The position numbers and the translations under genes were made by a program. A stretch of DNA of 64,000 bases from an uncultured Candidatus Saccharibacteria bacterium. GTDB taxonomy: Bacteria; Patescibacteriota; Andersenbacteria; UBA10190. This document shows, one piece after another, positions 22,888 to 64,000 of this stretch (positions within the stretch are counted from its first letter, which is position 1; each line of letters opens with the position of its first letter). The stretch lies in assembly GCA_964610055.1 (NCBI GenBank), contig CAZSUC010000001.1:70021-134020 (forward strand). Direction: 5' to 3'. The notes below the pieces were generated by a model. That model made no database searches. It was not told the origin of the DNA and saw only the letters and a list, made by a program, of their open reading frames with translations.

Positions 22888-22942
22888 TCTTATAAAAAGT
22901 GTAAAAGTTGACCAGTTAGCAAATAACAGGTAATCTATCTTT

Positions 22943-23080: not shown

Positions 23081-23089
23081 CTCTGTATT

Positions 23090-23434: not shown

Positions 23435-23669
23435 TTGGATTTTACGTTTAATCATTTGTTCTTTAAGAGCTTATCGGTTGACTTTTTCTCCGGATCATGG
23501 GCTATTTAAAAAAATCTATCCTTATGGCGTGTGTCGTTTCACTCCCACTTGCTCGGTGTATACTGAACAGGCGCTAATAAAACATCAATGGCGCGGCCTT
23601 TTTTTAGGTCTTAAACGAATTTTAAGATGCAACCCTTTTGTTAGGGGTGGATATGATCCTGTTCCATAA
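23427..23669 (+). CDS. yidD: membrane protein insertion efficiency factor YidD
   Basis: [19 protein letters not shown]-like motif and RCNPF; 80 aa. Confidence 0.85.
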
Positions 23670-23708
23670 TCAGTTTTATTTACTTTTTTCTCGTGTATAT
23701 TAAAAGCA

Positions 23709-31921: not shown

Positions 31922-31938
31922 AACCTTATTTTATCTGC

Positions 31939-32556: not shown

Positions 32557-32563
32557 TAACTAA

Positions 32564-34414: not shown

Positions 34415-34415
34415 A

Positions 34416-35117: not shown

Positions 35118-35137
35118 GCCCTCTAGTATACCAGATT

Positions 35138-36120: not shown

Positions 36121-36123
36121 AAA

Positions 36124-37992
36124 TTATTTATTCTTCTTATCCTTTATTCTTCTTTCTGCTTTATGCAGAGCCTCAATTAATTTTTCATCATTGGTATTAT
36201 ATATTTCTTGTTTTGTGGCATCTGACATTTTCTCAACCATAGCATCGTTATTTAATACAGCTGTTACTCTGGTTCTGTCAGCGTCAGATTTCATATTCTT
36301 CACCATTGTCACAGTCATGTTATTTGTCTCTTCCGTTGTTAACTGCTCTCCTACTCGTTCGTCCCTTAAAACTGTCGGTGATGTTCTACTAATAGCGGAT
36401 AGGTTTCCTTGCGTAACGCCTCTAGAGCGTAAATCACTTGCTTGATTTTTAGCTTCTTTTGTTTTAGCGCGTTCTTTTGAATCAATCGCGTTATAAGCCT
36501 TAGTTCCCCATGACTTTTTCATTTTCTCTTCTTCCGTCTTTTTATCGGCATCTTCCCATGACTTAACAAGCGATCGCACTGGTCGAGTGACTCCCTTGTA
36601 TGCCTTTTGTGCTCCTATAGCACCCAAAAAACCTACTGGACCTGCCACCATTGTGCCAACAGTTTTTGGATTATTCCAAGTCCATTGAGCTGCTGATTTT
36701 GCCTTACCCTTTACCGTGTTTAAAACTTCTCCCGCTCCCGCCATGCCCGCAATCTTTCCAGCCGAAGCTGCTGCCAGCATTAAAGCTATTGAAATAATAA
36801 TATTTAACACTTCGGATAATTCTCTTGGCACTCCTGTGCCTGCTTTAATTGCGCCTCCGCCAATTACGGTTGCTAAAATTAAAATCAAAAGGGCAATTGG
36901 CCCAAATAACACCCATGCAATAAATTGCGTCCACCACTTTCTTGCTAATCCATCTGCTCCTGGAATCGCAATCGCTAAATATGCTGCCGGAGAAGCAATT
37001 AATAATAAAATTAACATAATATATCTTATCAAAAACCCAATCGTTGCTCCTGCCATTCCGATTACCAGTCCCCACGCCAGTATAGTTGTTTTAAGAACAT
37101 TAATTGGCCCACTCCAACTATCTCCTTCGGTCGGTAAATAATAACTGACTCCAAATGCGGTAGTTTGATAAAAATGATAACTTAAATAACCACTTTGTTT
37201 TAAAATATCCGTTCCCAAATTAGTTAAACTGCTAGTTGTTACTGTTCTAACTAACACAGCCATAGCTAATCTGGAAGCATCAATAATGATACCGCCGATT
37301 ACTAAACTAAAATTGATGAGCAAAGCAGCTGCTAGTAATCGAGGCAAAAAGCGTTTTGGTTGAAATTGATCCAGCCTTAAAGTAAAAGCAAATGCTATAA
37401 ATAATAGCGCCAAGATAAAACCGAGATTGGCAAACCCCTGTACAACCGGCCAACCCGCCTGAACCATCGGGTTAGTTACAAAACTTCCAATCGAAATAAA
37501 CCAAGTTAGTAAAAATGAACATAACCATAATATCCAAATTGCCAAATTTACCCCCATGCTAAAGGCTCCGTTTAAAAACCAAATAAGTTTTAATTGCCAC
37601 CAGTCCGGCTTTGTTTCGGAATCAGTTTCTGTTATTTGTGCTGCTTGCTCAGCCGTACAAGCAACTAAGTATGGTCTTTTTTCTGTTTTACCTTCACCTA
37701 AAATATCAGAACCAAGAACATCTGAATATCCATTAAGATTTACTAATAAATAATTTTCTGGATAAGAAAGGATTATGTCGTCATCGCTTACACCCCAAAC
37801 CGCCTTTACACATCCTAGATTCTTTAATTCCTCATAAGTCATCGATGTACGTTTTGAGATCGATATATCTCCTTCGTTTATATAATGACTATTATCTTGC
37901 GCAATAATATGTTTTCCTGGAATTAATAAAACACTCCCCATCAAAAAGACGAACAAAGCATTTTTAAAATAACTATTCATTAACTTGAGCAT
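36124..37992 (-). CDS. polytopic membrane protein, VirB6/TrbL-like candidate
   Basis: 622 aa; signal peptide, extracellular N-terminal region, then at least 7 TM helices and a charged C-terminal tail; positioned in the operon like VirB6 analogues. Confidence 0.4.
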   Translation of the reverse strand: MLKLMNSYFKNALFVFLMGSVLLIPGKHIIAQDNSHYINEGDISISKRTSMTYEELKNLGCVKAVWGVSDDDIILSYPENYLLVNLNGYSDVLGSDILGEGKTEKRPYLVACTAEQAAQITETDSETKPDWWQLKLIWFLNGAFSMGVNLAIWILWLCSFLLTWFISIGSFVTNPMVQAGWPVVQGFANLGFILALLFIAFAFTLRLDQFQPKRFLPRLLAAALLINFSLVIGGIIIDASRLAMAVLVRTVTTSSLTNLGTDILKQSGYLSYHFYQTTAFGVSYYLPTEGDSWSGPINVLKTTILAWGLVIGMAGATIGFLIRYIMLILLLIASPAAYLAIAIPGADGLARKWWTQFIAWVLFGPIALLILILATVIGGGAIKAGTGVPRELSEVLNIIISIALMLAAASAGKIAGMAGAGEVLNTVKGKAKSAAQWTWNNPKTVGTMVAGPVGFLGAIGAQKAYKGVTRPVRSLVKSWEDADKKTEEEKMKKSWGTKAYNAIDSKERAKTKEAKNQASDLRSRGVTQGNLSAISRTSPTVLRDERVGEQLTTEETNNMTVTMVKNMKSDADRTRVTAVLNNDAMVEKMSDATKQEIYNTNDEKLIEALHKAERRIKDKKNK

Positions 37993-39557
37993 TGGTCAGG
38001 GAATAAACTGCAAAACGCATCCCCTAATGAATTTTGAATACTGCTCCAGATATCATCTACGCTAACACAAAAACCACAGCTATCGTTTGTGGCTTCATCA
38101 TGACGAAAAGTATCATTTGTTAATGCTAATAAAGCTGCTCGTGATCCACTCTCAAGCTTTGGATCAATTGCACTTACATTAGGAGATAAATCAGTTTTTG
38201 GCTCATCGTAAAAGTCGTACAGTCCGTTATATAATCCAGCAATAACGTCAAAAATACCCGCCACTTCTCCGCTCTCAGAACCTTCGCTTGTCTGGTCACT
38301 ACGTATTCCTTGTACGGTTCCGCTATCGCTACTACCGCGATCAACTAACTGTTGAGATCCTGGTGTATCACCTATTTCCGAATTAGCATATTTCAAATCT
38401 GTCACTTCTCGACTTAACGTGCCCGCTAATTCCCCTAACATGGCAATTTTAGCGCTCGCCGGTGTTGTAATTTCTCGGCTAATTGTTCTGTAATATACTC
38501 CGTTAGCACCTGCTGCATTAGCAGTTGATACTCCTGCTACGGTACCAGAAGTACTACCAGTTGCAATTACTTTTTCAGTATCCGCTTTCGCTCCATCTTG
38601 TTGTTCTGTAGACAATTGGCTCGCAACTTGATCTCCCGCAGAAATAGCACTTGAGAGAAAACTTGTTGGTGCATTCGCTAGTTGAGTAAGTTTATGAAAT
38701 ATTTCATCATCTGGAGCGCTGTCAGATAATGTTATTTCGCCTGTCTCGTCGTCTTCCACTAAATAATCAAATAAATTTGGATCAATTGCGGAATCGGTTT
38801 GAGGCCATGTACTCAAATGATTTACTGCCGCTTGTTGGGTGTCAGTTGTAGCATTTTCTCTTAAAGCAGCTAAGTTTGAATCAAATGGCAAAATATAATT
38901 AGGAGCATCTGAATCAGTCGTATCCGCTGCTTTTGATCTTAAATTTTGATCAGTAGACATGCCAGAATTCATAGCCGCCCCAATCCCAATCTCAATCTGC
39001 GCAGCTTGATTTTGAGCGCTTGTAACAAAAGCCGTGTCCTGATCTTGCAATGGTCCTGCCTCTGTACTACACGCTGCTCGTCCCAAGGCTCTTTCGCAAA
39101 ACACCCGCACCAATTCATCTGTATAATTTCGACGCGCTTTTTCTAGGCTCGATTGCTGTAGCTGATAGGCTGTCCATAAATCATTGCCTTCTAAGGTTAT
39201 ATTTCGCGTCACTACCGCTGCTAAATCCGTTTTAGTCGCATCTAACGCATCGTCTGATTGTGCCTCGAATCCCGCCTCGGTTCTTTTGTCTAATAAACTT
39301 TCTCGTGAAAAACTATCATCTTCATCGGCTGGCTCCACATAATCAGCCTGATCTAAGGCCGCTAAAATATTAAAAAACAATTGTTGTTGCCCTACTGCCG
39401 TGTAAAAAACAGCATGTGGATCAGCATGCGCAGACGGTATTGCACCTAAAAGGCCAAATATTAGCACAAACAATAGAATCAACGCAGTCCCGCGCAATTT
39501 TGTCACACTCAAACTTTGCCTACGGCCAGGCTTTTCCATGCGCTTATTATATACCAT
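37980..39557 (-). CDS. secreted Ser/Thr/Ala-rich protein with Cys-rich C-terminus
   Basis: N-terminal signal/anchor (LILLFVLIFGLLGAIPSAHA). C-terminal SCGFCVSVDD...FCSLFPDQCSS. Confidence 0.4.
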   Translation of the reverse strand: MVYNKRMEKPGRRQSLSVTKLRGTALILLFVLIFGLLGAIPSAHADPHAVFYTAVGQQQLFFNILAALDQADYVEPADEDDSFSRESLLDKRTEAGFEAQSDDALDATKTDLAAVVTRNITLEGNDLWTAYQLQQSSLEKARRNYTDELVRVFCERALGRAACSTEAGPLQDQDTAFVTSAQNQAAQIEIGIGAAMNSGMSTDQNLRSKAADTTDSDAPNYILPFDSNLAALRENATTDTQQAAVNHLSTWPQTDSAIDPNLFDYLVEDDETGEITLSDSAPDDEIFHKLTQLANAPTSFLSSAISAGDQVASQLSTEQQDGAKADTEKVIATGSTSGTVAGVSTANAAGANGVYYRTISREITTPASAKIAMLGELAGTLSREVTDLKYANSEIGDTPGSQQLVDRGSSDSGTVQGIRSDQTSEGSESGEVAGIFDVIAGLYNGLYDFYDEPKTDLSPNVSAIDPKLESGSRAALLALTNDTFRHDEATNDSCGFCVSVDDIWSSIQNSLGDAFCSLFPDQCSS

Positions 39558-40463
39558 TTATGACAGGTTGTATTTCGTTTCTAAGGCAGTAACTGCTTGT
39601 TCTATCTCATTAAACACATCAGCTAAGTCCCCAATCTTTTTAGCCCCAATCAAGCCTTTAACTAAATCACCAGGCATCTCTGTCATCATCTCGACCGCAT
39701 CCGCCAGGGCCGTTGAAGCGGCAATATATTTTTTGTGCAAATCAACCACTTCTTCCGGCGCAGAAATGCTTTTTAGTACTAATACATTTTGACGTAATGC
39801 TAAAAGCATGTTTTTCATTTGATCTGGATCAACCAATTGACGGGCAAACGCCTCTTCAATATCACTGCTGCTCACCGCCGTTAAATCTTTGTTATGAGTA
39901 GCAGAAATACTATCTAAATAAGCTTTAATTGCCTCTGCTCCTGTCGTATTTTCTGTTTTAATATCCGTATCGGATATAGTTGGCAATAATTCGCCCGCAT
40001 TCTCATTTATATATGCTGTAATATTGTCTTCGCTCATAATTTCTGCCTGATCAATATCTCGCGGCAAGCCACTTAAATACTTTCCAGTTTCTGTACTAGT
40101 ATCAAACACAGCCTCACCTGTTTCAGGCTTAATTTCATCGTTTGGACCAGCTGTTAATGGATCTCGCCCTAATTGAATTTCATCTAAGTCATCCACTCCG
40201 TCTGAATCAGTATCAGCATTATTTGGGTCAGTTTGATATAATACTTCAAAGCTATCTGGAATTCCGTCTCCATCAGAATCTGTCGTTCCGGCCACTTCCC
40301 CAGCGTTCGGTGTTGGCGAAGCTTGCGCAATTTGCTGACCCCCGCTGTCTTTAGTTGCTAAATGATACAAGGCGACCCCTCCTTGCCATAAGCCATACGT
40401 CAAACCGAAAGCCATCGCTGTAACCAATGCAGTTGTTAAACCTAGTCTATTCGTTGCTTTCAT
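39558..40463 (-). CDS. secreted protein with thrombospondin-type-3-like Ca-binding Asp repeats (paralogue of 42860-43822)
   Basis: DSDGDGIPDSFEVLYQTDPNNADTDSDGVDDLDEIQLGRDPLTAGPND; signal peptide. Confidence 0.5.
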   Translation of the reverse strand: MKATNRLGLTTALVTAMAFGLTYGLWQGGVALYHLATKDSGGQQIAQASPTPNAGEVAGTTDSDGDGIPDSFEVLYQTDPNNADTDSDGVDDLDEIQLGRDPLTAGPNDEIKPETGEAVFDTSTETGKYLSGLPRDIDQAEIMSEDNITAYINENAGELLPTISDTDIKTENTTGAEAIKAYLDSISATHNKDLTAVSSSDIEEAFARQLVDPDQMKNMLLALRQNVLVLKSISAPEEVVDLHKKYIAASTALADAVEMMTEMPGDLVKGLIGAKKIGDLADVFNEIEQAVTALETKYNLS

Positions 40464-40488
40464 ATAAATTTATCATATCACAATTTTT

Positions 40489-42888
40489 TTAGAGCCAAGG
40501 TTCAGTATGCCTTGTGTCTAACAAACACTCTTCTGTTGAGGTGACATACATGTCCAGCTTTGTAATTGGTTGGCCTGAACCACACGTCGCCACTCCACCA
40601 CCACTGCTCACAACTTCTCCGCAATGACAACTACAATCGGTCGCCCAGTAAGGATCTCCGGGCTCTCCTCCGCATGGCGTTCCTGAAACAGCTGCATCTT
40701 CAATAACCGTATTTTCACCCCCACTAACATATTCTGGAGGGGCGATGACACCAGCTTTAGCTGGCGCATTTCCACCCTCACCCTTTAAAACAAACTCCGG
40801 ATAACCATTCGACTCGCACCAAGTTGTCTCTACCGCCGCCGCAAATTCAGTCGCCTCCATACAGTCTGTCGCCACAGTTTTTGGTGCATCTAAAGCCACT
40901 TCCCAATATTCCAAGCGAATTTTATCATCCGCTGATTTATCATCATCCGCTTGAGTCTCATAAGTTGCTCTCCAAACCGCGTTAAATCCTAGTCGCCATC
41001 TCTCCGGCATTAAAATAATCAAATTATTAAGTGGTTCCTTATCGTCATTATCAAATTGGTCTAAAGCCTGATTAGCTAAATTCTGCCATTCATCTGGGCC
41101 AGAAGTATTATCCTCTCCTGTAAATGTCAAAAATGATAGCTGAGTTTGAGTATAGGTAGTTGTACGATTATCTAAATTTTCTTCATATGCTTGTTTTACT
41201 GCTACTAAGGATGCTTCTAAACCACCGTCATTTGCTTCTCCGGGACAAGCTATCCCAATTGATTCTTTTGCGTTTGCAATCGCCGCCCGCGCAACTGGAT
41301 CAAATTTTTCCTTTCGATCAGTTTGCATCTCAGCATAATTATTAGCCAACTCTTTTTGAGCTGATTCTGTTTGCTGCTGCCAATTACTATAGGCCTGAGT
41401 TAGTTCTTGCCTAGCTGCATCGGTGTCTTTGTTCCCGTCTAACACCGCTCCTAATGTGTCAATAACGCTCTGAGCATGATCATAATATATCTCCCTTAAT
41501 TTTTCTTTAGCTGCAATCTTGTTTTTTATCCCTAATAATTCATTTTCATGAACCAGGGTAGAAAAATTTCTCCCACTTTGCCATAACGGTTTCATATATG
41601 GAGCTGCTGGATCATCTTCGCGCAAGAAAGCATCTTGAAAAGATGGATCAGACACTACGTCATCAGCTAAAACGCTACACTCTCCGGGTAAAATTACCGC
41701 AATCGCTTCTAAAAATCTCTTTCCTAATTTCATGGCTTCATACCATGGCGTGGCCACATCAAATCTATTGCCTAAATCTGGTATTGAATCAACGCACCCA
41801 ACCTCTCCCGGACCGCAAATAATTGCCGGTTGTTTAGAAGCTAGCGGGGCAGAAGAAACATCCGGTGCTGAACAGTCATTACTAGGAATAATATGTGTGG
41901 TCACTGTTTTTTGGGCATTGTCACATTTTGACTTACAGCTATCAAAACAATTCTCCTTACACTCTTCTAAATTATCCTCGCATTGAGCTTTACAAGATTC
42001 TTTGCCACTTGTCCCGTCTGGCGCTTCCAGGTAACACCAATACTCCGGTAATGTATTGGGATCGTCTAACCACTCCCATCCTTCTGGTAAGGTGCCTGGC
42101 CTTATCGGCGGACAAGGTCTTATATATGTTCCCGGTAAGTTCACAATTTCACCACCGCTCAATTCTCCTTCCGTATCTTCGTCTTCTATCTCTTCACAAT
42201 CTTCAATACATATATCATATTCTTTCTCGCATTCCTCATAGCAATTTGGAATACATTTTTCCATGCATCTATATTTGTCATGTAAATTAGCGCAACTATA
42301 AAAAGAAGCCGTTACTTTTGCTGTTGCGGGAGCAATCGCTTCTACAAACGTTACTGTTACAGTTAAATCTAGCTCTTGGCCGGCATTAAAAGCATATAAT
42401 GGGTCATTTAAAAACTCCCCCACCTGCGCGCCCACATAATCATCCGGCAGGTCATTATTAATAATTTTTGCTCCGTCCGGTGCGTCAAAAGTAATTTTTA
42501 AGTTATACGCTGGCCCAGTTCCCACATTACGAATATAAACCCGATAGGTTATCGAATCCCCCTCAATTACGCAATAATCTTTATTAATTAAGAAAATCTC
42601 AATCTCAGGTGAGCCCGCGTTAACGTCACATGATGGCGCTGGCCCTATCATGGCAGCGACGTCTACTCCGTCTGTTGCCGCCTCAACACGTGGATCAGAA
42701 TTAAAATTACGCGAGATATATTTACTAGTAAATTTCTGATAATTAAAATCTTGTGATATTGGTACTGATATTTCTGCTTTTGTTTCCATCGGTAGCCACC
42801 ACCAGCTCAGACCTATCAGTAATCCTGCTAGCCACTTCGCCTTGTTTCGTCTGTGCATACTATTCGACTGAATTGGCCAACCGTTCAA
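40489..42888 (-). CDS. large secreted cysteine-rich acidic protein (799 aa)
   Basis: Signal/anchor at the N-terminus. Dense CxxxC/CxC blocks (CMEKCIPNCYEECEKEYDICIEDCEE, CKAQCEDNLEECKENCFDSCKSKCD). C-terminal CSCHCGEVV...TCGSG. Confidence 0.45.
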   Translation of the reverse strand: MNGWPIQSNSMHRRNKAKWLAGLLIGLSWWWLPMETKAEISVPISQDFNYQKFTSKYISRNFNSDPRVEAATDGVDVAAMIGPAPSCDVNAGSPEIEIFLINKDYCVIEGDSITYRVYIRNVGTGPAYNLKITFDAPDGAKIINNDLPDDYVGAQVGEFLNDPLYAFNAGQELDLTVTVTFVEAIAPATAKVTASFYSCANLHDKYRCMEKCIPNCYEECEKEYDICIEDCEEIEDEDTEGELSGGEIVNLPGTYIRPCPPIRPGTLPEGWEWLDDPNTLPEYWCYLEAPDGTSGKESCKAQCEDNLEECKENCFDSCKSKCDNAQKTVTTHIIPSNDCSAPDVSSAPLASKQPAIICGPGEVGCVDSIPDLGNRFDVATPWYEAMKLGKRFLEAIAVILPGECSVLADDVVSDPSFQDAFLREDDPAAPYMKPLWQSGRNFSTLVHENELLGIKNKIAAKEKLREIYYDHAQSVIDTLGAVLDGNKDTDAARQELTQAYSNWQQQTESAQKELANNYAEMQTDRKEKFDPVARAAIANAKESIGIACPGEANDGGLEASLVAVKQAYEENLDNRTTTYTQTQLSFLTFTGEDNTSGPDEWQNLANQALDQFDNDDKEPLNNLIILMPERWRLGFNAVWRATYETQADDDKSADDKIRLEYWEVALDAPKTVATDCMEATEFAAAVETTWCESNGYPEFVLKGEGGNAPAKAGVIAPPEYVSGGENTVIEDAAVSGTPCGGEPGDPYWATDCSCHCGEVVSSGGGVATCGSGQPITKLDMYVTSTEECLLDTRHTEPWL

Positions 42889-43822
42889 TTTCTTGAGTGA
42901 TCAACGGGTAGTATTGTCTATCAATCGTATCTAACTGTTGTAAAGCCACGAGCGATCTAATTGGATCCGTATTCCATAATGCAATCTCATCTAAAGTCGC
43001 TGCTAATAACTCAGTGTATCCTAATAACAATTTATGTAAGGCAACGGCTGTCGTTGGTGCCTTCTCGTCAAATAAAGATTGCTGATATTGTCTTACTTGC
43101 AAGCTCATAGAATCAATCCTGGCAGTATTATTATTCGTATATAACTCATCTAACGCCTTAGATAAGGTCTGGGAATCGGATAATTGCTGAATAGATCTTG
43201 CCTGATTAAGATATAAACTCAAAGTTAAAGTAGAATTATCAGTTGTTGTTTGAATAGCTGACTCTTGCACGGTTGGCAGCTTAGTAATAATTGATTGGGT
43301 CTGCGCATAAGCAATCATGTTTGCTGTTGTTGTTTCTTCTGTGCTATGAGTTTGAGTGTATGCTTCGGTTAAATTTGATTTCTCGGCATATAAATCTAAG
43401 TCAGATTCAAAATACTGATCTACTTGTAATGGAGCTAAATCTAGCGCTTGCAAATCCTGACCCGGTTCATAATTATCAGGCAAGGTATCATTAGGCCCAG
43501 CAATTGTTGGATTATGTTGGTTAGTCACCTCATCTCCATCTAAATATCCGTCTCCGTCTGTATCTGCTGTATAAGCATCTGTTCCCCATAAAGCCTCATC
43601 AGCATTAATCAATCCATCCTGATCCGCATCACCATTTGGATCTTCTTCTGCTAGTCTTTGTGTTCCTTCGCTCGCAACCAATAATACCGGAGTGCTTGTT
43701 GCAACTTCTGTGGTGTCTGTACTTGTATTACTTCGCAAGCGCTGAATTACCAATACCACCGTGCCTGCTATCATGCCGACAATAAGCACAATTAAAATAC
43801 CCAAAATTAAACGTCGTGGCAT
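42860..43822 (-). CDS. membrane-anchored protein with thrombospondin-type-3-like Ca-binding Asp repeats (paralogue of 39558-40463)
   Basis: N-terminal TM helix; DADQDGLINADEALWGTDAYTADTDGDGYLDGDEVTNQHNPTIAGPND, colinear with the repeat block of the paralogue. Confidence 0.5.
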   Translation of the reverse strand: MPRRLILGILIVLIVGMIAGTVVLVIQRLRSNTSTDTTEVATSTPVLLVASEGTQRLAEEDPNGDADQDGLINADEALWGTDAYTADTDGDGYLDGDEVTNQHNPTIAGPNDTLPDNYEPGQDLQALDLAPLQVDQYFESDLDLYAEKSNLTEAYTQTHSTEETTTANMIAYAQTQSIITKLPTVQESAIQTTTDNSTLTLSLYLNQARSIQQLSDSQTLSKALDELYTNNNTARIDSMSLQVRQYQQSLFDEKAPTTAVALHKLLLGYTELLAATLDEIALWNTDPIRSLVALQQLDTIDRQYYPLITQEIERLANSVE

Positions 43823-53443: not shown

Positions 53444-53515
53444 AGGCTCTTACTTTACCTTAAAATACTTGCTTTGTCGAACAAAATCCGGGAAAATACT
53501 CTAAGTCGTTACTTT

Positions 53516-53603
53516 GGACAGGTCGCATAGCTGGTCGAGTGCGCCGCTCTCGAAAAGCGGTAGGGATGCAAGTCTCTCGTGGGTTCGAATCCCACCCTGT
53601 CCG
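53516..53603 (+). tRNA. tRNA-Ser (anticodon CGA), long variable arm
   Basis: Acceptor GGACAGG/CCTGTCC, anticodon stem CCGCT/AGCGG with loop CTCGAAA, variable arm about 18 nt, T-arm GTGGG TTCGAAT CCCAC. Confidence 0.75.
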
Positions 53604-53610
53604 CCTAAAA

Positions 53611-53640
53611 CAAAACCCGCTCCTTTAGGGGGCGGGTATT
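53611..53640. terminator. bidirectional intrinsic terminator shared by tRNA-Ser (+) and the 5S rRNA 3' end (-)
   Basis: Plus strand AAAACCCGCTCCTTTAGGGGGCGGGTATTGTT. Minus strand CCCGCCCCCTAAAGGAGCGGG followed by TTTTGTTTTA. Confidence 0.6.
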
Positions 53641-53644
53641 GTTA

Positions 53645-53762
<118 letters not shown>

Positions 53763-53991
53763 ATTAATAATTGCTATTATCAATACTCGAAGGTCCTAAT
53801 TTTCGAGTGAATATATTTGAAGATAACCAACTTAGTAACTAACGATAATACATCACTAGTCAAGTCAACATACGTTCATACAACTGGACCTATTAGTACG
53901 GATCGGCTCAACACATTACTGTGCTTACACCTTCCGCCTATCAACCTGGTCATCTTCCAGGGGTCTCATAATGAAACTTTATCTTAGAGTG

Positions 53992-54023
<32 letters not shown>

Positions 54024-54215
54024 ACCAGCCCGACTTAGCTACCCAGCCATGCTCCAGTAACGGAACAACTGGTACACCAGAGGTCGGTCCCTTCCGGTCC
54101 TCTCGTACTAGGAAGGACGCTCCTCAAGTTTCCACGCCTGCGACAGATAGGGTCCAACCTGTCTTGCGACGGTTTGAACCCAGCTCGCGTATCGCTTTCA
54201 TTGGCGAACAGCCAA

Positions 54216-54247
<32 letters not shown>

Positions 54248-54261
54248 GTGAGCCGACATCG

Positions 54262-54586
54262 CTGTCATTATCTTCTTGTTTCCAAAAAGCATAGACTATG
54301 CCTTCATCTCGGACAGTGCTTTAGACTGATGTGTCATAGCATCTGTTTTTTTACCGAGAGCCAGCCTTTTGCCCGCTTTTAAATCTTAATCTTCAAGCGA
54401 GCCTCCCCTTTCGGGTCAGTCGTTACGGGGCCTACATGTATGCAGGCTTCCCACGGTGTTGTCTTCTGTTCTAATGAACAGGTCAGAGTTCGCCGTTTTT
54501 AGCTGGTTTATATTTAATCTGTTTTATTTTCGAAAAGACTTTGGATCAGCACTCAAGGATCTCTCCTTGGGCACCCCGATATATTA
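54262..54586 (-). mobile_element. ORF-less group I intron (about 325 nt) in 23S between E. coli-equivalent U2500 and C2501
   Basis: Exon sequence GGCACCU|CGAUGUCGG is contiguous in E. coli 23S but here is split by 325 nt. The intron begins UAAUAUAUCGGGGUGCC; GGGUGCC can pair with the 5' exon GGCACCU (U-G at the splice site), forming P1. The intron ends in G. It contains an S-element-like GGCAUAGUCUAUGC. Confidence 0.75.
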
Positions 54587-54623
54587 AGGTGCCAAACCCC
54601 ACCGTCTATGTGGACTATTGGGT

Positions 54624-54660
<37 letters not shown>

Positions 54661-55139
54661 ATGATCTTCCGCTCTTCTACGTGAGAACGGTCGGTTCACT
54701 AAGCTCCACTTTCGTGTCTGCGCGACATGTACGTCTTGCAGTCAAGCCGGCTTATGCCTTTACACTCTAAAGCCCGATTTCCATCCGGGCTGAGCCGACC
54801 TTATAGGCTCCTCCGTTACAATTTGGGAGGAATCCGCCCCAGATAAACTACCCGCCAGGCACTGTCCGGGTGGTGGTTTCACACCACGTCGTTAGACGCG
54901 TCAAACATAAAGGGTGGTATCTCATTGTTGGCTCCGGTCCGTCCTAAGACAAACCATCATAGCCTCCCACCTATACTGAGCAACATGCTCGACGTGCCAA
55001 TACCAAGCTGTAGTGAAGCTCCACGGGGTCTTACCGTCTAGCCGCAGGGTGGCGGCATCTTTACCGACAATGCAATTTCGCCGGGTCCTTCGTTGAGACA
55101 GTTCTCCAGTCGTGACGCCATTCGTGCGGGACAGAACTT

Positions 55140-55893
55140 CATGTTCTAACCCTTTCTTTCGAAAGGCATAGACTATATTTTCATTCTCTAAAGCAAATTC
55201 AATATTTCCTGTAGATATATTTTTCTTTCCACGGAAACACTGAGCATATTGCTAGTTAGATCCAAAATTTCTCGCAATCCATCCCTTGTAAGATGGTTAC
55301 CGCGGGCAATGATTTTACATATGATTTTGAATTGTTCAAAATCGCGTTGTTTAGCAGATAAAAGTGGATACTTTTCAAAATGTGGAATTATTATCCTATT
55401 AATATCTTTGATACTACGCGTCTCATAATGAGCGGTCTTATCAGTTGATGAATAACGGATAGTGCCACATTGAAAGTAACTAAGCATAAGCTCAAGTACT
55501 TCTATTCTGTTTATCTTCTGCCCGACAGAGAAACTAGGACGTACCTCCCAGCCAACTAAGAGTTTAGGTCTCTTAACTATGGAGACGGAAAAACATCCTT
55601 CCCCATCAGTATAACCAGAGATATATGCTCTTAATTGTTGTTTGCTTTTTGAGAAGCCGGCGTCTGATAAAGATTGATGTATCATAATCTGATTCTCTAT
55701 CTCACTTTTGGCTAAGTGCTTGAGCACATTAGCGTTCAGATCAGTCGTTACGGGGTCAATCTGTTGTTGAAACAGACGACTTCCCACGGTATTACCCATG
55801 TCCATATTATAACATAATACGAACACTAGGGCTTCACCGTTATCAGCCGGATTCTTTAATTCATGGTCGCCCATGAATTCAGGCGAATTCTTC
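55140..55893 (-). mobile_element. group I intron (about 754 nt) in 23S after E. coli-equivalent U1951 (helix 69-71 region), carrying a homing endonuclease ORF
   Basis: Exon GGCAGGU|AAGUUCUGUCC matches E. coli GGGU1951|AAGUUCCGACC after removal. The 5' exon ends in U and the intron ends in G. IGS-like GCCUG occurs near the intron 5' end. An S-element-like AAAUAUAGUCUAUGCC occurs near the 3' end. Confidence 0.75.
55188..55685 (-). CDS. single-motif LAGLIDADG homing endonuclease encoded within the 23S intron
   Basis: The YISGYTDGEGCFSV LAGLIDADG motif starts about 23 aa after Met (MIHQSLSDAGF...), I-CreI-like spacing. The track ORF extends in frame upstream to a GTG at the exon boundary (55895), which is unlikely to be the real start. 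About 166 aa. Confidence 0.7.
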   Translation of the reverse strand: MIHQSLSDAGFSKSKQQLRAYISGYTDGEGCFSVSIVKRPKLLVGWEVRPSFSVGQKINRIEVLELMLSYFQCGTIRYSSTDKTAHYETRSIKDINRIIIPHFEKYPLLSAKQRDFEQFKIICKIIARGNHLTRDGLREILDLTSNMLSVSVERKIYLQEILNLL

Positions 55894-57026
55894 ACCTGCC
55901 AAGGAATTTCGCTACCATAGGACCGTTATAGTTACGGCCGGCGTTCATCGGCGCTTGGCCCCCCAGCTTGCACCAGGGGGATTAACGTTCCGACACTGGC
56001 CAGGCGTCAGCTCCTATACATACTCTTTCGAGTTCGCAGGAACCTGTGTTTTTGCTAAACAGTCGCTAGAGATCGTGCGCTGCGCCCGTCACAACCTTGC
56101 GGCTGCAACGGGAGCCCTTATTGCGAACTTACGGACGCTTTTTTGCCGAGTTCCTTAACGAAGGTTCTCCCGATCACCTTGGTACTCTTACACCAACCCA
56201 CCTGTGTCGGTTTGTGGTACGGGCGGCTAGACAGACGAATGAGTGACGCTTTTCCAGGAAGCTGCTTTCATACCGGAGGCTTGGTCTTGCGACCGCACTC
56301 TCCCGCATAACTTCGCCGTTTAAATTGGACACTCGGATTTACCTAAGTGTCCCGACTAATGTTATGCGCAGGATAAGTCATATGTCCTGTTTATTTCCGC
56401 AACTTCGTCACGCCCCTCAAACTGTCTAACCGGCGCAGGAATATCAACCTGCTGTCCATCGCCTACGCGTTTCCGCCTCGGCTTAGGCCCGGCTAACCCT
56501 GGGCTGATTTACATTGCCCAGGAAACCTTGGGTTTCCGGTGGCAGGGAATCTCACCCTGCTTATCGCTACTCATGCCACCATTCTCTCTTCCGTCCGCTC
56601 CACCGTGCCTCACAGCACGACTTCAACGCAAAGGCCATGTTCAAATAGAAATGGCCGGACGAAATGCTCGCCTACCAATCCGAACCTAATCGGTTCGGAC
56701 CCCGTGTCATCGGTACTTATCTTGAGCCCCGGTACATTATTCGGCGCAAGGTCGCTTGACGAGTGAGCTATTACGCTATCTTTAACAGATGGCTGCTTCT
56801 AAGCCAACTGCCTCGCTGTTTCAGCAACCTCACCACCTTAACCACTTAGATAAGATTCAGGGACCTTAGACTACGGTCTGGGCTGTTTCCCTTTTGAGCG
56901 CGGAGCTTAGCCCCCGCGTTCTGACTCCCGTGATTACGCCAATAGCATTCGGAGTTTGCTAGGGTCCCCCCGCTTGCGCGGGGAAGAGCCCTTGCAGCGC
57001 TCTACCACTATTGGTTACTACACGAG

Positions 57027-57062
<36 letters not shown>

Positions 57063-57442
57063 TGCCAGGTTCGATTGGAATTTCTCCGCTATCCACAAGT
57101 CATCCGATGGTATTGCACAGCCAAACGGTTCGGGCCTCCACGCAGTATTACCCGCGCTTCACCCTGCTCATGGATAGATCACCTGGTTTCGGGTCTCGTG
57201 CATGCTACTCTCTATCTAATTCTTCTCTCGTACTATCCTTGCGGACAGTCCGGAAAAGAAAAAGATAGAAACGCGCTATTAACACTCGCTTTCGCTCCGC
57301 CTACGCAATGTAATTGCTTAAGCAAAAGCAGCATACAGCGAACTCGGTGGCTCGTTCTGCAAAAAGCACGCCGTCACCCCACTTGCGTGGGGCTCCGACT
57401 CAATGTAGGTATGCGGTTTCAGGTCTATTTCATTCCCCTTCC

Positions 57443-57489
<47 letters not shown>

Positions 57490-58378
57490 ATGGTCGTATT
57501 TAGTCTTAGGAGGATCAATTGACCTGTGCTAAAAGCACAAGACAATTGATTGCATGTAGTTCTCCTTGCTTCAGACGGGATTTCACATGTCCCGCCGTAC
57601 TCAGGTTAATAGCAATCTTTTAAAACGTATCTTTCATATACGCGACTCTTACGCTCTTTGGTGGGGCATTCCAGCCGCCTTCTATTAGACAAACGTTTAT
57701 AAATGACTCGCGCTCCATAAACGCGCGAACGCTACTACCATCTACTCTCTCTTAGCAACGCTTTATGGGCTTACACTAAGAAAGTTTGGACTGTTCCCGT
57801 TTCGCTCGCCACTACTCAGGGAATATAATCACTATCTTCTTACCAGGAATTGCCTGTTCTCTTCTTACCTGTGACCTTGCGGTCTCCAGGAAAAAGAGAA
57901 CGGGATTCAAGATAGAAATAGTAATCGTTTTTTTCTTTTCCTCTGGCTACTAAGATGTTTCAGTTCGCCAGGTTCGCTCCACTTAAGCCTTGCAGCTTAA
58001 GGGTAACTTTGGGATGAACCAAAGTGGGTTTCCCCATTCGGACATCTGCGGATCAAAGGTTGCTCAGCACCTCCCCGCAGCTTATCGCAGCCGGCCGCGT
58101 CCTTCATCGCCGTCCATTGCCAAGGCATCCGCCGCATACCCTTACGGTGTATGACGTACCTAACTTGACTAGCGGTGTGTTACCGCTAAATCGCCTCTTG
58201 TTTATATATTATGTGATCGTTTTGAATTACTTTTGTCGGTTATCTTCACTATATTCAATTGGCAAAGTGCCGTCTTTTCTGTGTCTCAACCATACAAACC
58301 ACAGAAAAAAACCTTCAAGTTCTTTATCTGTGTCTTGTATGACTTAATCTGTTCGGGCCAAAAAGAAGGAGCTTCGGG

Positions 58379-58412
58379 TTTTAAAACCGCTTCCAGAGGA
58401 AGCGGTTTTAAA
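58379..58412. other. perfect palindromic hairpin in the 23S leader region
   Basis: TTTTAAAACCGCTTCC AGA GGAAGCGGTTTTAAAA (12-bp stem flanked by A/T tracts). Confidence 0.5.
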
Positions 58413-58493
58413 GGAGAGCTGGGCCCATAGGGCTCTACTCGCCGCTTCTTAGAGGTCTGCAGTAGGATAATTTAAACTGCATAATTAACAGCT

Positions 58494-58521
58494 AGTATAC
58501 TTGACCTTATAAACCTGTCAA
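58494..58521 (-). promoter_or_regulatory. near-consensus sigma70-type promoter directed toward the 23S-5S genes
   Basis: The minus strand reads TTGACA-N16-TATACT, located about 320 nt upstream of the 23S 5' end and downstream of a terminator-like hairpin. Confidence 0.5.
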
Positions 58522-58538
58522 GTGATCTTTTTTCAACG

Positions 58539-58564
58539 TTAAAACCCGGTTTCCCGGGTTTTAA
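58539..58564 (-). terminator. intrinsic terminator-like hairpin after the membrane-protein gene and before the 23S promoter
   Basis: AAAACCCGG TTT CCCGGGTTTT palindrome; on the minus strand the stem CCCGG/CCGGG is followed by TTTTAAC. Confidence 0.45.
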
Positions 58565-58616
58565 CCGACTGCTGCGCAGCCATTGCTTTTGTGTTTCCTG
58601 TCACCAGGACTCGTGT

Positions 58617-59357
58617 CTACTTACTCTTATCTAAGAAGTCAGATTCGACTTTCTGTAGCCACTTCGCCGCCATATCTTTGCCTCCTAAGCCAAAGGCTAA
58701 GCCTCCAGCTAAGGCTGTCATTGCGAATAAAGCGGTTAATAAACTGTTGATTAAAGCCTCGGCAACCTTGAGCTGAATCAAAGCAGCCATTATTGCAAAA
58801 ATAATGATTGCCCACTTGCTCACTCCTGCGATTGCACCTCCGCTTGAAAAACCGGCAGCTTTAACACTGGCATTAACTGTCTTGGAGACAAAATTTGCCA
58901 GCACTACCGCGATGATCAAGATTAAAGCAGCAACAACTACGTTCGGTACATACGCCAACACTTGGCGCAAGAAACCTGATACGTCGTCTAGCCCCAAAAT
59001 ATCCGTTGCAGCCAACAAAGTTACTGCGATCAAGAACCATTTAATTACCTCGCCAAAAAGTCGAGGAATATTAACTTTCACGTTAGCGCGCGCTGCCGCA
59101 TTCTGCAGACCGGTCAAGTTATCAAAAGCCTGGTTTACGCGTAAAACCACTAACCCCTTTTCAATTAGACGACCCACTGCAACCGCTAGGGCCCAACCTA
59201 ATGAAAAGACTATTACAGCCGCAATCAAGTCAGGCAAAAATGTTATAAATTCATTCCACAATCCAGTGAGCGAACTTATAATAGCATCCCCCCAAGCCGA
59301 CACTGATCCTGAGCCTCCTCCGCTCGCAGCTTGTATATCATAAGGCATCACGCTCAC
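58617..59357 (-). CDS. membrane protein with repeated conserved TM-helix modules (MscS-associated TM_helix-like)
   Basis: 246 aa; repeated LPDLIAAVIVFSLGWALA...GRLIEKG / VPNVVVAALILIIAVVLANFVSK pattern; located inside the 16S-23S spacer. Confidence 0.4.
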   Translation of the reverse strand: MSVMPYDIQAASGGGSGSVSAWGDAIISSLTGLWNEFITFLPDLIAAVIVFSLGWALAVAVGRLIEKGLVVLRVNQAFDNLTGLQNAAARANVKVNIPRLFGEVIKWFLIAVTLLAATDILGLDDVSGFLRQVLAYVPNVVVAALILIIAVVLANFVSKTVNASVKAAGFSSGGAIAGVSKWAIIIFAIMAALIQLKVAEALINSLLTALFAMTALAGGLAFGLGGKDMAAKWLQKVESDFLDKSK

Positions 59358-59478
59358 CTCCTCTCAAGGAAATAATGAAGGATTTAACTCTTATTGGCCT
59401 AAACATACATCTTGCTTTTTGCTCTGTCAAAAAAGCGGGTTGCTGTCTTGCGACAACAACCCGTTCAAAACCAAAACA

Positions 59479-60120
59479 CTACTGGTTTTTCTTCCGAGCC
59501 AAGAATTCAAGCCCCTTGCCTACCTCAACGTTGATGGGAATCCCCTGCTTGCACAGCGGGCAATCTGCTTCATCCCAGGCGTCGAGCGTGACATTCGCCA
59601 GTGTGAACAGCTTTGGCACGTCTGCCAAATCCGCCGCCGTCACTCCTCCACGGTTGCAGAGAGCGCCAAGGCCAACCACCTCGCCTCCAACCGCTCTTAC
59701 GGCTTCCACTACCTTCCGAGCGGAACCGCCGGTCGTGAGCACGTCCTCTACTACCAGCACGCGCCTGCCGGTAATAAGTTTGTTGTACCCGCGCCTGATG
59801 ACGAATGTATCGCCAGCTTCTGATTTCTCGGAGTAAACGGCTAACACGTCTTTCCCGGAAGAAAGGGCGTAAGCTGTCCATTGGCTCAAGACCACGCCCC
59901 CGATAGCTGGGCCACACACCACTTGCACATTGTCGTTCGCGAAATTCGCTGCGATATGGCCGCAAAGCCACTCAGGGCACCGGGGGCGCACGTAAACCGC
60001 ATCCTTGTTGACGTATGCCGTACCATGCTTGCCCGACGTATACACGATATGGTCGCCGGTAATTACCGCTCCCACTTCGTGCAAAATCCGCAACACTTCT
60101 TCTGACGTAGATCCTGACAT
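59479..60120 (-). CDS. type I phosphoribosyltransferase (orotate PRTase-like)
   Basis: PRPP-binding motif VLVVEDVLTTGGSARK; 213 aa, the size of PyrE. About 60% GC versus about 42% in flanking DNA, which is why several overlapping stop-free ORFs appear on both strands. Confidence 0.6.
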   Translation of the reverse strand: MSGSTSEEVLRILHEVGAVITGDHIVYTSGKHGTAYVNKDAVYVRPRCPEWLCGHIAANFANDNVQVVCGPAIGGVVLSQWTAYALSSGKDVLAVYSEKSEAGDTFVIRRGYNKLITGRRVLVVEDVLTTGGSARKVVEAVRAVGGEVVGLGALCNRGGVTAADLADVPKLFTLANVTLDAWDEADCPLCKQGIPINVEVGKGLEFLARKKNQ

Positions 60121-60304
60121 AGGTCACCTCTGATTCAGTGCCTGATTGAAAGTACAAAACAGCCTGACCATCAAGCTGCTCCTGCCCTTAACTTAGGTAA
60201 TCAGCCTTAAATAGTCAAAACGCCCAGCGGGTGCCGTTTGTACAAAACGGCTCTGATCCCGCTGGGCTAAATCAGCCCCCAACCACACAGTAATCTTATA
60301 TCCG

Positions 60305-60375
60305 TGGACCTGAGGAGAATCGAACTCCTATCTCCCGGATGCAAACCGGGTGCTCTGCCACTAAGCTACAGGCCC
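60305..60375 (-). tRNA. tRNA-Ala (anticodon TGC)
   Basis: Acceptor GGGCCTG/CAGGTCC (G-U), anticodon stem CCCGG/CCGGG with loop TTTGCAT, T-arm GGAGTTCGATTCTCC. Confidence 0.8.
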
Positions 60376-60423
60376 TTCTAACCGTAATCTCACTGTACTG
60401 ACCCTTTTCAGTTTGTCAAAACC

Positions 60424-60672
60424 CTAGTCCCCGCCTACTCCAAATAAAAACAAAACTCTTTGAATAAACAGATTATACAAATCAAATGCCAGCATAAAAC
60501 CGCCAAAAATCAAAAATGTCCCAAATACTTTCCATGACATCCACCGCGCATTAACCGCTCCGAATATCTCGCTTATGTCTCCAAAATTTCGCAGCATCAT
60601 ATCTGTATATCTTACGCATATATATCCAGCTGCCATAATAAGCGCTCCTAAAATAAATAGTCCAAAGCTCAT
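60424..60672 (-). CDS. small hypothetical membrane protein (82 aa, two predicted TM helices)
   Basis: Hydrophobic segments flank a short loop; no family recognised; sits between the cca gene and tRNA-Ala. Confidence 0.35.
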   Translation of the reverse strand: MSFGLFILGALIMAAGYICVRYTDMMLRNFGDISEIFGAVNARWMSWKVFGTFLIFGGFMLAFDLYNLFIQRVLFLFGVGGD

Positions 60673-60690
60673 TTCCGTATTCTAACACAC

Positions 60691-62163
60691 TTATACATGA
60701 TATTTCCCCCGAATTTCGTTTTCACGGCGCTTTTCTTCTTCTTCTTTGGCTGCTTCGCCTAATCTCTTTAATTCCTCCGGATCTTTGTCTTTGAGTTTTT
60801 CTGCTTCTTTTATTAAATATTCCCGTGTATTTTTAAGTGGATCATTTAACACTTGAGCCAATAACGCGTTTAAAATACCGCCAATTTGCGGGCTTGGTTT
60901 TAGACCTAAGTCTGTCATTAAATCTTTGCCATTAATTGCCAACTGGTTCACCGTCACTGGTTCACTCGCCGCTTTTTCTACCAGAAATTGCAGATGACGC
61001 AAACGATACGGCTCTGCTTTTGGCACCCCCGATCCTTTGCGTTCCGCAATCCGCAATTTTATTAAATCATCGAAATTTTCTTGGCCTACTCGTCGCAATA
61101 ATCGGCGCGCGCCCGCTTCTGTCACTTTGCCAATATCATAGTAAAACATATGGTGTCTTACTAAATGAGTAACTTGCTTTATAAAATCATTTGAGAATCG
61201 CAATCGCTTTAATATGTTTTCTGTCATTTTTGCGCTCACAACATCATGTCCATAAAACGTATATTCACTTCCCTTGCGTCTGCGCGTGCGTGGTTTGCCA
61301 ACATCATGCAATAACGCCGCCCACCGCACCTGCGGCACATATTCATATTGAGCCGCAAATTGCAGTGACTTTATTAAATGAGTAAAAACATCATATTTAT
61401 GGTGCAAATTTTGCTCAATCCCTACTCCTTCTGCTAACTCTGGCATAATCTCTTGAAGCAATCCTGACTGTTGCAGCATTGCTAAACCGCTTTCCGGATG
61501 ATCACTCCCAATAATTTTATTTAATTCATCTCTAATTCGTTCTTGTGAAACTACTTTTATATTCCCGCTCATCGCACACAAACTATTCCAAGTCTCTTGC
61601 TCTATTTCAAAGTCTAATTGTGTTGCTAATCGAACCGCGCGCAATAAGCGCAAAGCATCTTCTTCAAACCTTTCTTTTGGATTTCCAACCGCTCTGATTT
61701 TTTGATCATGTAAATCTTTAATGCCGCCAAAATGGTCAATAATTGCCAGGCCATCAATAATAACGCTATTCGGTTGAGGCGCTGTTTCTGTGTTGGCCGC
61801 TAATGCGTTAATTGTAAAATCTCGCCGCGACAAATCCTCGGTCAAAGAAGTCGTAAAATCAACTTTATCCGGATGCCGTTGATCGCTGTATTGTCCCTCT
61901 GTGCGATAAGTTGTAACTTCAATCTCTTTTAATGACTCATCAAGTGTGTCATTTAACACACTTACCGTTCCAAACTTATTTTTATAAAAACTCTTAGGTA
62001 AAGCTTTTTGAATTTCATCTGGAGTTGCATTAGTTGTCACGTCCCAATCATGTGGAGTTCGTCCCAATAACAAATCCCGCACGCATCCACCCACAGCGTA
62101 GGCTTCAAAGCCTGCTTTTTGTAATGTCGCGATTACTGTTTGTACTTCAACCGGAATCGTCAT
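60691..62163 (-). CDS. cca: CCA-adding tRNA nucleotidyltransferase with HD domain
   Basis: Pol-beta head GGCVRDLLLGRTPHDWDV; HD motif LLHDVGKP; 490 aa. Confidence 0.8.
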   Translation of the reverse strand: MTIPVEVQTVIATLQKAGFEAYAVGGCVRDLLLGRTPHDWDVTTNATPDEIQKALPKSFYKNKFGTVSVLNDTLDESLKEIEVTTYRTEGQYSDQRHPDKVDFTTSLTEDLSRRDFTINALAANTETAPQPNSVIIDGLAIIDHFGGIKDLHDQKIRAVGNPKERFEEDALRLLRAVRLATQLDFEIEQETWNSLCAMSGNIKVVSQERIRDELNKIIGSDHPESGLAMLQQSGLLQEIMPELAEGVGIEQNLHHKYDVFTHLIKSLQFAAQYEYVPQVRWAALLHDVGKPRTRRRKGSEYTFYGHDVVSAKMTENILKRLRFSNDFIKQVTHLVRHHMFYYDIGKVTEAGARRLLRRVGQENFDDLIKLRIAERKGSGVPKAEPYRLRHLQFLVEKAASEPVTVNQLAINGKDLMTDLGLKPSPQIGGILNALLAQVLNDPLKNTREYLIKEAEKLKDKDPEELKRLGEAAKEEEEKRRENEIRGKYHV

Positions 62164-62190
62164 ATTAACCAGTATACATCCTTCCTACAG

Positions 62191-62264
62191 TGGGCACGCC
62201 TGGGCTCGAACCAGGGACCTCTTCATTATCAGTGAAGTGCTCTAGCCAGCTGAGCTACGTGCCC
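62191..62264 (-). tRNA. tRNA-Ile (anticodon GAT)
   Basis: Acceptor GGGCACG/CGTGCCC + A, anticodon stem CTTCA/TGAAG with loop CTGATAA, T-arm CCTGGTTCGAGCCCAGG. Confidence 0.85.
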
Positions 62265-62303
62265 GTGACCCTTATTTAACCCTCTAATCTGTATTTATGC
62301 AAG

Positions 62304-62335
62304 CAAAAACCCGGGATTATCTACCCGGGTTTTGC
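62304..62335. terminator. palindromic hairpin between the 16S 3' end and tRNA-Ile (terminator or processing stem)
   Basis: CAAAAACCCGGG ATTATCTA CCCGGGTTTTG; the same A-stem-T architecture on both strands. Confidence 0.4.
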
Positions 62336-62510
62336 TATGTGAATGTATTGCTATGCGCGAGTCGCAAACAGCTTGCCTCTTCCTCGTTCCGCATATTTAA
62401 AATGGAAGGAACGATTTCCATGTATTTAGCTGTTATCCTCGAGGGACAACAGTCGACCTTCTAGGCAATCTAAACTTGTCGCCAAGTCCTAGATTGTTTG
62501 TCAAATCCCT

Positions 62511-64000
<1,490 letters not shown>

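Follow-up and report, generated by a model that had tools for sequence, protein, structure and literature searches.

A stretch of 64,000 nucleotides from contig CAZSUC010000001.1 (assembly GCA_964610055.1, positions 70,021 to 134,020 of the forward strand; hereafter the window) was analyzed around an open reading frame (ORF) at 59479–60120 on the minus strand. This ORF encodes a protein of 213 amino acids (ATG to TAG) of the PyrE family, i.e. a predicted orotate phosphoribosyltransferase (OPRT), and lies between the genes for 16S and 23S rRNA. The window covers about 9% of a roughly 700-kb genome, and these 64 kb were the only reference used for host composition. The best named homologs of its cca gene, coding for the CCA-adding tRNA nucleotidyltransferase, all belonged to Candidatus Andersenbacteria (58–68% identity); the host is an Andersenbacteria-like Patescibacterium. 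An earlier sequence-only reading had proposed the ORF as a GC-rich phosphoribosyltransferase gene in the rRNA spacer, acquired horizontally; as a reading frame it proved real. Along the minus strand the genes were arranged in the order 16S, tRNA-Ile, cca, an ORF of 82 amino acids, tRNA-Ala, pyrE, an MS-channel-like gene, 23S and 5S. In this direction, the following features were annotated:

62513–64000, minus strand: 16S rRNA (Rfam RF00177, 1409 bits), 5′ end cut by the window edge
62190–62264, minus strand: tRNA-Ile(GAU) (ARAGORN, Rfam)
60691–62163, minus strand: cca, native, between the spacer tRNAs (Pfam PF01743, PF12627, PF01966, PF13735)
60424–60672, minus strand: membrane ORF of 82 amino acids, native, kept after cca (ORF list; orthologs with 40–47% identity in the related loci L019–L024)
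60392–60419, minus strand: promoter-like site upstream of tRNA-Ala, TTGACA-16 nt-TACAGT (consensus scan only)
60304–60375, minus strand: tRNA-Ala(UGC), left-hand border of a variable slot (ARAGORN and Rfam)
60121–60303, minus strand: structured leader of 183 nt from tRNA-Ala to pyrE, with a long hairpin and GUUUU after it, then a second hairpin that precedes a U-rich tract, and with the ribosome-binding site GAGGTGA
59479–60120, minus strand: pyrE-like OPRT ORF, the GC-rich island proper (Pfam, NCBIfam, match in the Protein Data Bank (PDB), base composition)
59436–59463, minus strand: intrinsic-terminator-like hairpin, 12-bp stem followed by TTTTTT, 15 nt past the pyrE stop codon (consensus scan, sequence)
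59402–59430, minus strand: promoter-like site of the MS-channel-like gene, TTGACA-17 nt-TATGTT (consensus scan; native sequence)
58617–59357, minus strand: gene of an MS_channel_1st_1 membrane protein of 246 amino acids, native, downstream of the slot (Pfam PF05552, E value 1.6e-19)
58494–58521, minus strand: promoter-like site upstream of 23S (consensus scan, 11/12 matches)
53871–58156, minus strand: 23S rRNA with insertions (Rfam RF02541, 2257 bits)
53645–53761, minus strand: 5S rRNA

The 16S–23S spacer (58157–62512), inside which the pyrE ORF is located, measured 4356 bp and exceeded the distance of 1500 bp beyond which rRNA genes are counted as unlinked, an arrangement frequent in Patescibacteria (Brewer et al., bioRxiv 10.1101/705046). 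Since promoter-like and terminator-like sites were found within the spacer, the description as a split rRNA locus fits better than that as one operon; the location between 16S and 23S had been given correctly by the sequence-only reading, and its term rRNA spacer is to be replaced by split rRNA locus. The locus shares the distance beyond the cut-off with the unlinked operons (bioRxiv 10.1101/705046) and differs from them in that the rRNA genes remain neighbors in canonical order and orientation, and in its conserved cca, 82-amino-acid ORF and MS-channel-like gene together with the variable slot. No description of such a split locus with cca, small ORF, MS-channel gene and slot was found in the literature searched. 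Read from the sequence, neither spacer tRNA gene encodes its CCA end. Most of the top cca homologs were located on contigs of 2–8 kb, as expected if rRNA genes break assemblies on both sides.

Base composition of the pyrE gene

The pyrE ORF had a G+C content (GC) of 0.567 and a G+C content at third codon positions (GC3) of 0.640, compared to means of 0.411 (standard deviation (sd) 0.036) and 0.336 (sd 0.057) for the other 51 ORFs of the window, and to a GC of 0.378–0.459 for the neighboring genes. By GC3, codon usage and tetranucleotides alike it was the strongest outlier among the window ORFs. For GC3, a null distribution was generated by re-coding the same protein 20,000 times with host synonymous codon frequencies, which yielded 0.336 ± 0.032 with a maximum of 0.467; the observed value was located at z = 9.4 and was reached by 0 of the 20,000 re-coded sequences. 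The codon-usage deviation (z = −6.1) was the largest among the 52 ORFs, and the tetranucleotide distance (z = 5.1) lay beyond that of all 642-bp windows of the protein-coding part. Measured against the 64 kb, the composition hence differed from that of the host on all three scales. When GC was profiled in plain sliding windows, the rRNA genes attained values (0.55) similar to that of pyrE, so that the peak stands alone only if protein-coding genes are considered. The 60% G+C reported earlier for 59581–59640 was exact on recount and the sharp compositional island was borne out by all three tests, while the five overlapping stop-free frames seen there stood only in part: five long stretches exist, but they lie in four frames, with a maximum of four overlapping at any position.

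The shift was resolved by codon class as follows:

C/T-ending two-fold codons, fraction C: host 0.27, pyrE ORF 0.68
G/A-ending two-fold codons, fraction G: host 0.29, pyrE ORF 0.52
Four-fold sites, fraction G+C: host 0.36, pyrE ORF 0.64

As C/T-ending, G/A-ending and four-fold sites were shifted alike, this indicates a different general mutational background rather than tRNA adaptation. The GC3 excess was spread evenly along the whole gene.

Four other sources of the GC-richness were considered, and the first three were rejected. Amino acid composition does not account for it, re-coding with host codons giving a GC of 0.461 and a GC3 of 0.336. Translational selection was discarded because highly expressed-type comparators were not GC3-rich (HU 0.28 and IF-2 0.40 in the window, DnaK 0.35 in locus L069), and also on account of the shift at G/A-ending and four-fold sites. 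A position effect of the rRNA locus is at odds with the GC3 of the neighbors (cca 0.33, 82-amino-acid ORF 0.36, MS-channel-like gene 0.44). For an RNA element within the ORF, or a constraint overlapping it, there was no support, with no site-specific synonymous conservation among low-GC hosts.

Variable slot beside tRNA-Ala and origin of the gene

The window locus (58157–62512) was compared to those of three relatives (L019/L020, L021/L022 and L023/L024), which are distant, with 16S identities of 81–89% over the aligned parts; the compared spans were 1–9160 in L019, 1–7590 in L021 and 7711–13050 in L023. All three shared the order 16S, tRNA-Ile, cca, an ORF of 83 amino acids, tRNA-Ala, slot, MS-channel gene, 23S and 5S, and their identity to the window was 62–68% for cca, 40–47% for the small ORF and 62–67% for the MS-channel protein. 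No pyrE homolog was found in the fetched regions of L019, L021 and L023, i.e. the flanks were kept and pyrE was absent from the syntenic site. The slot beside tRNA-Ala was occupied as follows:

Window: pyrE
L019: four other genes
L021: methyltransferase and epimerase, opposite strand
L023: empty

In the relatives, the cargo of the slot was host-like in composition; only that of the window looks foreign. The tRNA-Ala gene was present in all relatives. Relative to the rRNA genes it was inverted in L019 and L023, as was tRNA-Ile in L019 (L019 1014–1088 and 5744–5816; L023 11697–11768), which suggests that the variable slot has undergone local inversions at its borders.

The limits of the insert were set from its flanks. 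Upstream of the MS-channel orthologs in L019, L021 and L023, the TTGACA box, a ATCCTTCATTA box in the 5′ untranslated region (5′UTR) and the ribosome-binding site GAGAGGAGGTG were kept; this conserved promoter and 5′UTR confine the right edge to the interval from the pyrE stop codon to the hairpin at 59463. The T-run of that hairpin (59436–59463) overlaps the −35 box of the MS-channel-like gene. With the left edge at the 3′ end of tRNA-Ala, the insert therefore comprises at most ~840 bp. The leader would probably belong to it: its GC was 0.486, compared to a maximum of 0.434 among 11 other intergenic regions, and it had no homolog in any fetched locus. The minimum free energy of the leader was −75.2 kcal mol−1 (z = −5.3), and 0 of 200 shuffled sequences were as stable. 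No Rfam family matched it, and a search for a riboswitch or other known leader gave nothing relevant at E ≤ 1; its hairpins with U-rich tracts could be a tRNA-Ala terminator and an attenuator.

Within the PyrE family, the window protein fell into the Patescibacterial radiation, being 64–72% identical to Patescibacterial copies and 53–57% identical to those of Oscillochloris (Chloroflexi). The closest PyrE (P0009/L068, 70–72%) came from a genome whose cca product was only 34% identical to that of the window, whereas in L001 the values were 51% for cca and 64% for PyrE; at the level of sequence identity, the ranking of PyrE conflicts with that of cca as a host marker. In both these distant loci, as in the window (60691–62163 vs. 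59479–60120), cca was located within one to three genes of pyrE (L001 1170–2553; L068 1744–5758), a closeness above what would be suggested by chance, although it was noticed post hoc.

The best-supported explanation, with a probability of roughly 0.65, is a horizontal acquisition of pyrE into the variable, tRNA-adjacent slot of the split rRNA locus. It rests on the composition together with presence and absence at a conserved syntenic site; the latter supports it independently, because relatives keep the gene order without pyrE and hold other cargo or nothing in the slot. In this event, a single-gene piece of ~0.8 kb (roughly 59464–60303) would have been inserted between tRNA-Ala and the MS-channel-like gene. 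The donor would most likely have been another Patescibacterium with a GC of roughly 50–55%, in which pyrE would normally follow pyrF, often with pyrD, in one operon; the type of donor, like direction and timing of the transfer, is inferred. The transfer would be recent enough for the third codon positions not to have drifted to the AT-rich usage of the host. The gene may be transcribed from a promoter of tRNA-Ala, where a tRNA-Ala/pyrE transcript could begin at the site 60392–60419, or from one in the leader, with termination at the hairpin 59436–59463.

The island resembles tRNA-adjacent genomic islets in its sharp GC, codon and tetranucleotide anomaly, in its position immediately 3′ of a tRNA gene, and in the presence or absence of variable cargo at the slot among relatives. 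It differs from them in being a single gene without integrase, direct repeats, phage carrier or donor match, and several of these results weigh against a transfer. Adjacency to a tRNA gene was the only sign of mobility: a search of the flanks for att-like repeats in direct orientation and for duplication of a tRNA end yielded only short repeats at chance level, Pfam detected no integrase or recombinase gene in the spacer, and no relative was found in viral contigs. No donor was found above ~72% protein or ~72% nucleotide identity, and no near-identical pyrE in an unrelated host; between hosts, the sampled copies reached at most 80% nucleotide identity. In a neighbor-joining tree (53 sequences, 100 bootstraps), the best sister of the window PyrE had 37% bootstrap support, and named taxa were scattered, among them the three Saccharibacteria and the two Wildermuthbacteria. 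The host-like cargo of the relatives means that variability of the slot alone is no proof of foreign origin, the proximity of cca and pyrE in L001 and L068 leaves room for an old linkage lost in the relatives, and the enrichment of pyrE in GC3 in most low-GC hosts (see below) means that a gene-specific GC-raising force could explain part of the anomaly. Of the horizontal acquisition proposed in the sequence-only reading, the compositional argument has therefore held and has been joined by three relatives with the same flanks and without pyrE, but the phylogeny did not provide the donor clade.

Protein family and pyrimidine gene context

The product of pyrE matched Pfam PF00156 at residues 56–175 (E value 4.5e-14; 52.5 bits vs. 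a cut-off of 26.3) and carried the binding loop for phosphoribosyl pyrophosphate (PRPP), VLVVEDVLTTGGS, at residues 121–133. With a score above gathering threshold and this loop, it is a member of the type I phosphoribosyltransferases. The best model by far was NCBIfam TIGR01367 (pyrE_Therm), aligned at full length over residues 9–197 (E value 2.2e-40). Its score of 138.2 bits did not reach the equivalog cut-off of 150.25, i.e. formally the protein falls short of the family; TIGR00336 gave 61.4 vs. a cut-off of 106.8. The best relatives of solved structure were all OPRTs (PDB 4paw, E value 2.1e-18; 5hkf, 5hkl, 2p1z and 3m3h, E values 1e-8 to 5e-10). In the alignment with them, the Arg of LCNRG corresponds to that of VVDRA (the DR motif of solved OPRTs) and SEK to VRK, so that the (D/N)R Arg is kept, as is the Lys of the flexible loop. 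A C-terminal CPLC motif is common to the pyrE product and 4paw. The type I PRPP loop, starting at residue 121, and the orotate-phosphoribosyltransferase-like character claimed from the sequence alone were both upheld by these matches.

Across the family, 65 of the 67 columns conserved at ≥95% were kept by the window PyrE, including the PRPP loop; the two changed columns were H to R and A to S. Sixteen of its residues, these two changes among them, occur in ≤3 of 168 family members and cluster at residues 41–55 (VRPRCPEW..GH), and its nearest-neighbor identity was 72%, compared to a family median of 90%.

The gene context was surveyed in 58 homolog loci from genomes and metagenomes. In ~33 of these, pyrF (orotidine 5′-monophosphate (OMP) decarboxylase, one of two types; PF00215) was located directly upstream, and in ~11 pyrD (dihydroorotate dehydrogenase; PF01180) was found nearby. 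Of all functional evidence, this gene context of the relatives is the strongest and, as far as neighborhoods can tell, marks the family as genuine pyrE. The window copy does not share it: in the 64 kb, no pyr gene, be it pyrF, pyrD or another, was detected by tblastn or by annotating 51 ORFs of the window with Pfam, in agreement with the lack of pyrimidine-pathway neighbors noted earlier, and within these 64 kb pyrE is an orphan copy. A conserved, family-wide link of the phosphoribosyltransferase to rRNA genes was rejected, since blastn with the 16S, 23S and 5S genes of the window found none in the 58 loci.

Judged by its sequence, the ORF is an intact gene of the pyrE family, coding for a Thermus-type OPRT. 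It resembles this type (TIGR01367; 4paw) in the full-length match, the VLVVEDVLTTGGS loop and the CPLC motif, and in that its homologs stand in pyrD–pyrF–pyrE operons; it differs in the score below the cut-off, in the divergent residues 41–55 and in the missing pyrF or pyrD neighbor. The product should convert orotate and PRPP to OMP and pyrophosphate, an enzymatic activity that we infer. An OPRT alone yields only OMP, and OMP needs PyrF; with ~9% of the genome covered, the salvage or auxotrophy-compensating role put forward in the sequence-only reading is a conjecture, and the activity of the window PyrE would be useful only if pyrF is located elsewhere in the genome.

It is doubtful, yet of some weight, that the gene was acquired and has since lost or changed its function, as an orphan phosphoribosyltransferase that is decaying or has shifted to another base as substrate. 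Such a fate would agree with the absence of pyrF and pyrD from the 64 kb, with the 138.2 bits below the equivalog cut-off, with the rare residues and the two substitutions at conserved columns, and with the low nearest-neighbor identity. Against it stand the intact, full-length frame, the conserved columns including the PRPP loop, the LCNRG Arg and the loop Lys, and a predicted good ribosome-binding site and terminator; furthermore, the search for pyrF covered ~10% of the genome, so that pyrF may be present elsewhere. Pyrimidine synthesis has been described in general terms as patchy in Patescibacteria (PMC12239599, PMC11974145), and a literature search on orotate phosphoribosyltransferase or orotate in Patescibacteria or the candidate phyla radiation returned no papers.

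GC3 across the pyrE family and further features of the window

GC3 of pyrE was compared to that of flanking ORFs in 25 other lineages with enough of them. In the 11 low-GC hosts among these, pyrE lay on average +0.11 above the local mean and was the top-ranked ORF in 5 of 11. Strong islands were found in L053 (+0.25, z = 5.8), L069 (+0.27, z = 4.5), L068 (+0.27, z = 6.0) and L028 (+0.145); in other hosts the excess was nil or negative (L025 −0.10, L010 −0.05, L051 −0.05). The GC3-rich pyrE/pyrF islets were located at:

L068: 4254–5758
L069: 9201–10639
L053: 1086–1784
L028: 4844–5464

The pyrF gene beside pyrE was also shifted in L068 (GC3 0.69) and much less so in L069 (pyrF 0.43 vs. pyrE 0.62). 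A regression of gene GC3 on host GC predicted 0.50 at 42%, from which the window value of 0.64 deviated by +2.3 residual sd as the most extreme. The GC excess is hence partly a family-wide trait of pyrE in low-GC Patescibacteria and not only a one-off event. Of 27 lineages, 5 had a tRNA gene upstream of the pyr module at a distance of ≤1 kb, compared to 4% expected (p = 0.004).

From these data, the main rival to an acquisition takes pyrE as an old, vertically inherited resident, maybe the remnant of a cca … pyrF–pyrE neighborhood, with GC3 held up by a gene-specific force (GC-biased gene conversion with frequent homologous recombination, or selection on synonymous sites) and with the gene lost from the relatives. 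The mean excess in the 11 low-GC lineages and its top rank in five of them speak in its favor, as do the 0.50 already given by the family regression, the proximity of cca to pyrE in L001, L068 and the window, and the longish branch of the window PyrE without a close donor. It is nevertheless unlikely: the excess varied from −0.10 to +0.31 between hosts and differed between pyrF and pyrE of the same locus (L069), unlike a uniform constraint; it was gene-wide, without site-specific synonymous conservation; three relatives had the full flanking order without pyrE and a slot that was empty or held unrelated cargo; and the leader was GC-rich as well, without counterpart in the relatives. The scattered excess, negative values included, and the tRNA adjacency agree better with repeated transfer and subsequent amelioration than with a uniform constraint. 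For the pyr module as a whole, either recurrent mobility or a GC-raising force such as biased gene conversion would apply.

That chimeric assembly or contamination brought a fragment from an organism of higher GC into the rRNA region is hardly credible, even though rRNA loci are frequent misassembly sites and the island is short and sharply bounded: contigs assembled separately from three independent sequencing runs (SRR8925806, SRR8925775 and SRR8925805) were 100% identical and gapless over window positions 58032–62740 and extended from the end of 16S to the start of 23S, across both island junctions, so that the island is reproducible and no assembly artefact.

Beyond the horizontal acquisition in the window, a wider pattern is put forward tentatively. 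The pyr(D)FE module leading from orotate to uridine 5′-monophosphate, or pyrE alone, might be a cassette that is recurrently exchanged among Patescibacteria, often beside tRNA genes, and that appears as a GC3-rich islet in many low-GC lineages; in addition, Andersenbacteria might conserve the split rRNA locus, with cca and two membrane-protein genes between the spacer tRNAs, and its tRNA-Ala border might serve as a cargo slot. The metabolisms of Patescibacteria are tiny and patchy, and the supply of nucleotides plays a central part in the dependence of these bacteria on hosts. A pyrE moving by itself and a foreign-looking pyr module in many lineages would, if true, mean that nucleotide-completing genes are traded within the radiation, which would complicate metabolic reconstruction from the presence and absence of genes. 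The genes between the rRNA genes form no single fixed unit but a conserved core plus a slot of variable content, a point of relevance to rRNA-based binning and to assembly. Taken alone, the window presents a well-documented but ordinary gene transfer, and the wider pattern of cassette and slot is the more interesting lead.

PyrE uses PRPP as its co-substrate. A PRPP synthase gene was located directly 3′ of 5S in L023 (17056–17988); at this position, the window has only tRNA-Ser (53444–53644), and no PRPP synthase gene was found in the 64 kb.

The 23S rRNA gene measured 4286 nt, compared to 2925 nt for the model. An insertion of ~0.75 kb (55138–55895), not present in L019, L021 and L023, encodes a LAGLIDADG homing endonuclease of 235 amino acids (55188–55895, minus strand; PF00961, E value 9.5e-27) and matched no Rfam intron family at gathering score.

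Two further regions of the window were annotated. At 18875–24970, a neighborhood resembling a replication origin was found, in which a recF-like gene, dnaN and dnaA share one strand, opposite to rnpA, yidD, yidC and a jag-like gene; a GC trough of 0.283 (21001–21600) coincided with a change in GC skew. A cluster at 31469–43822, probably for an apparatus of type IV secretion or of a conjugation-like kind, contained a type IV secretion system pilin, a TraG/VirB4-like ATPase and a PrgI-like protein, together with several large proteins that Pfam did not match.

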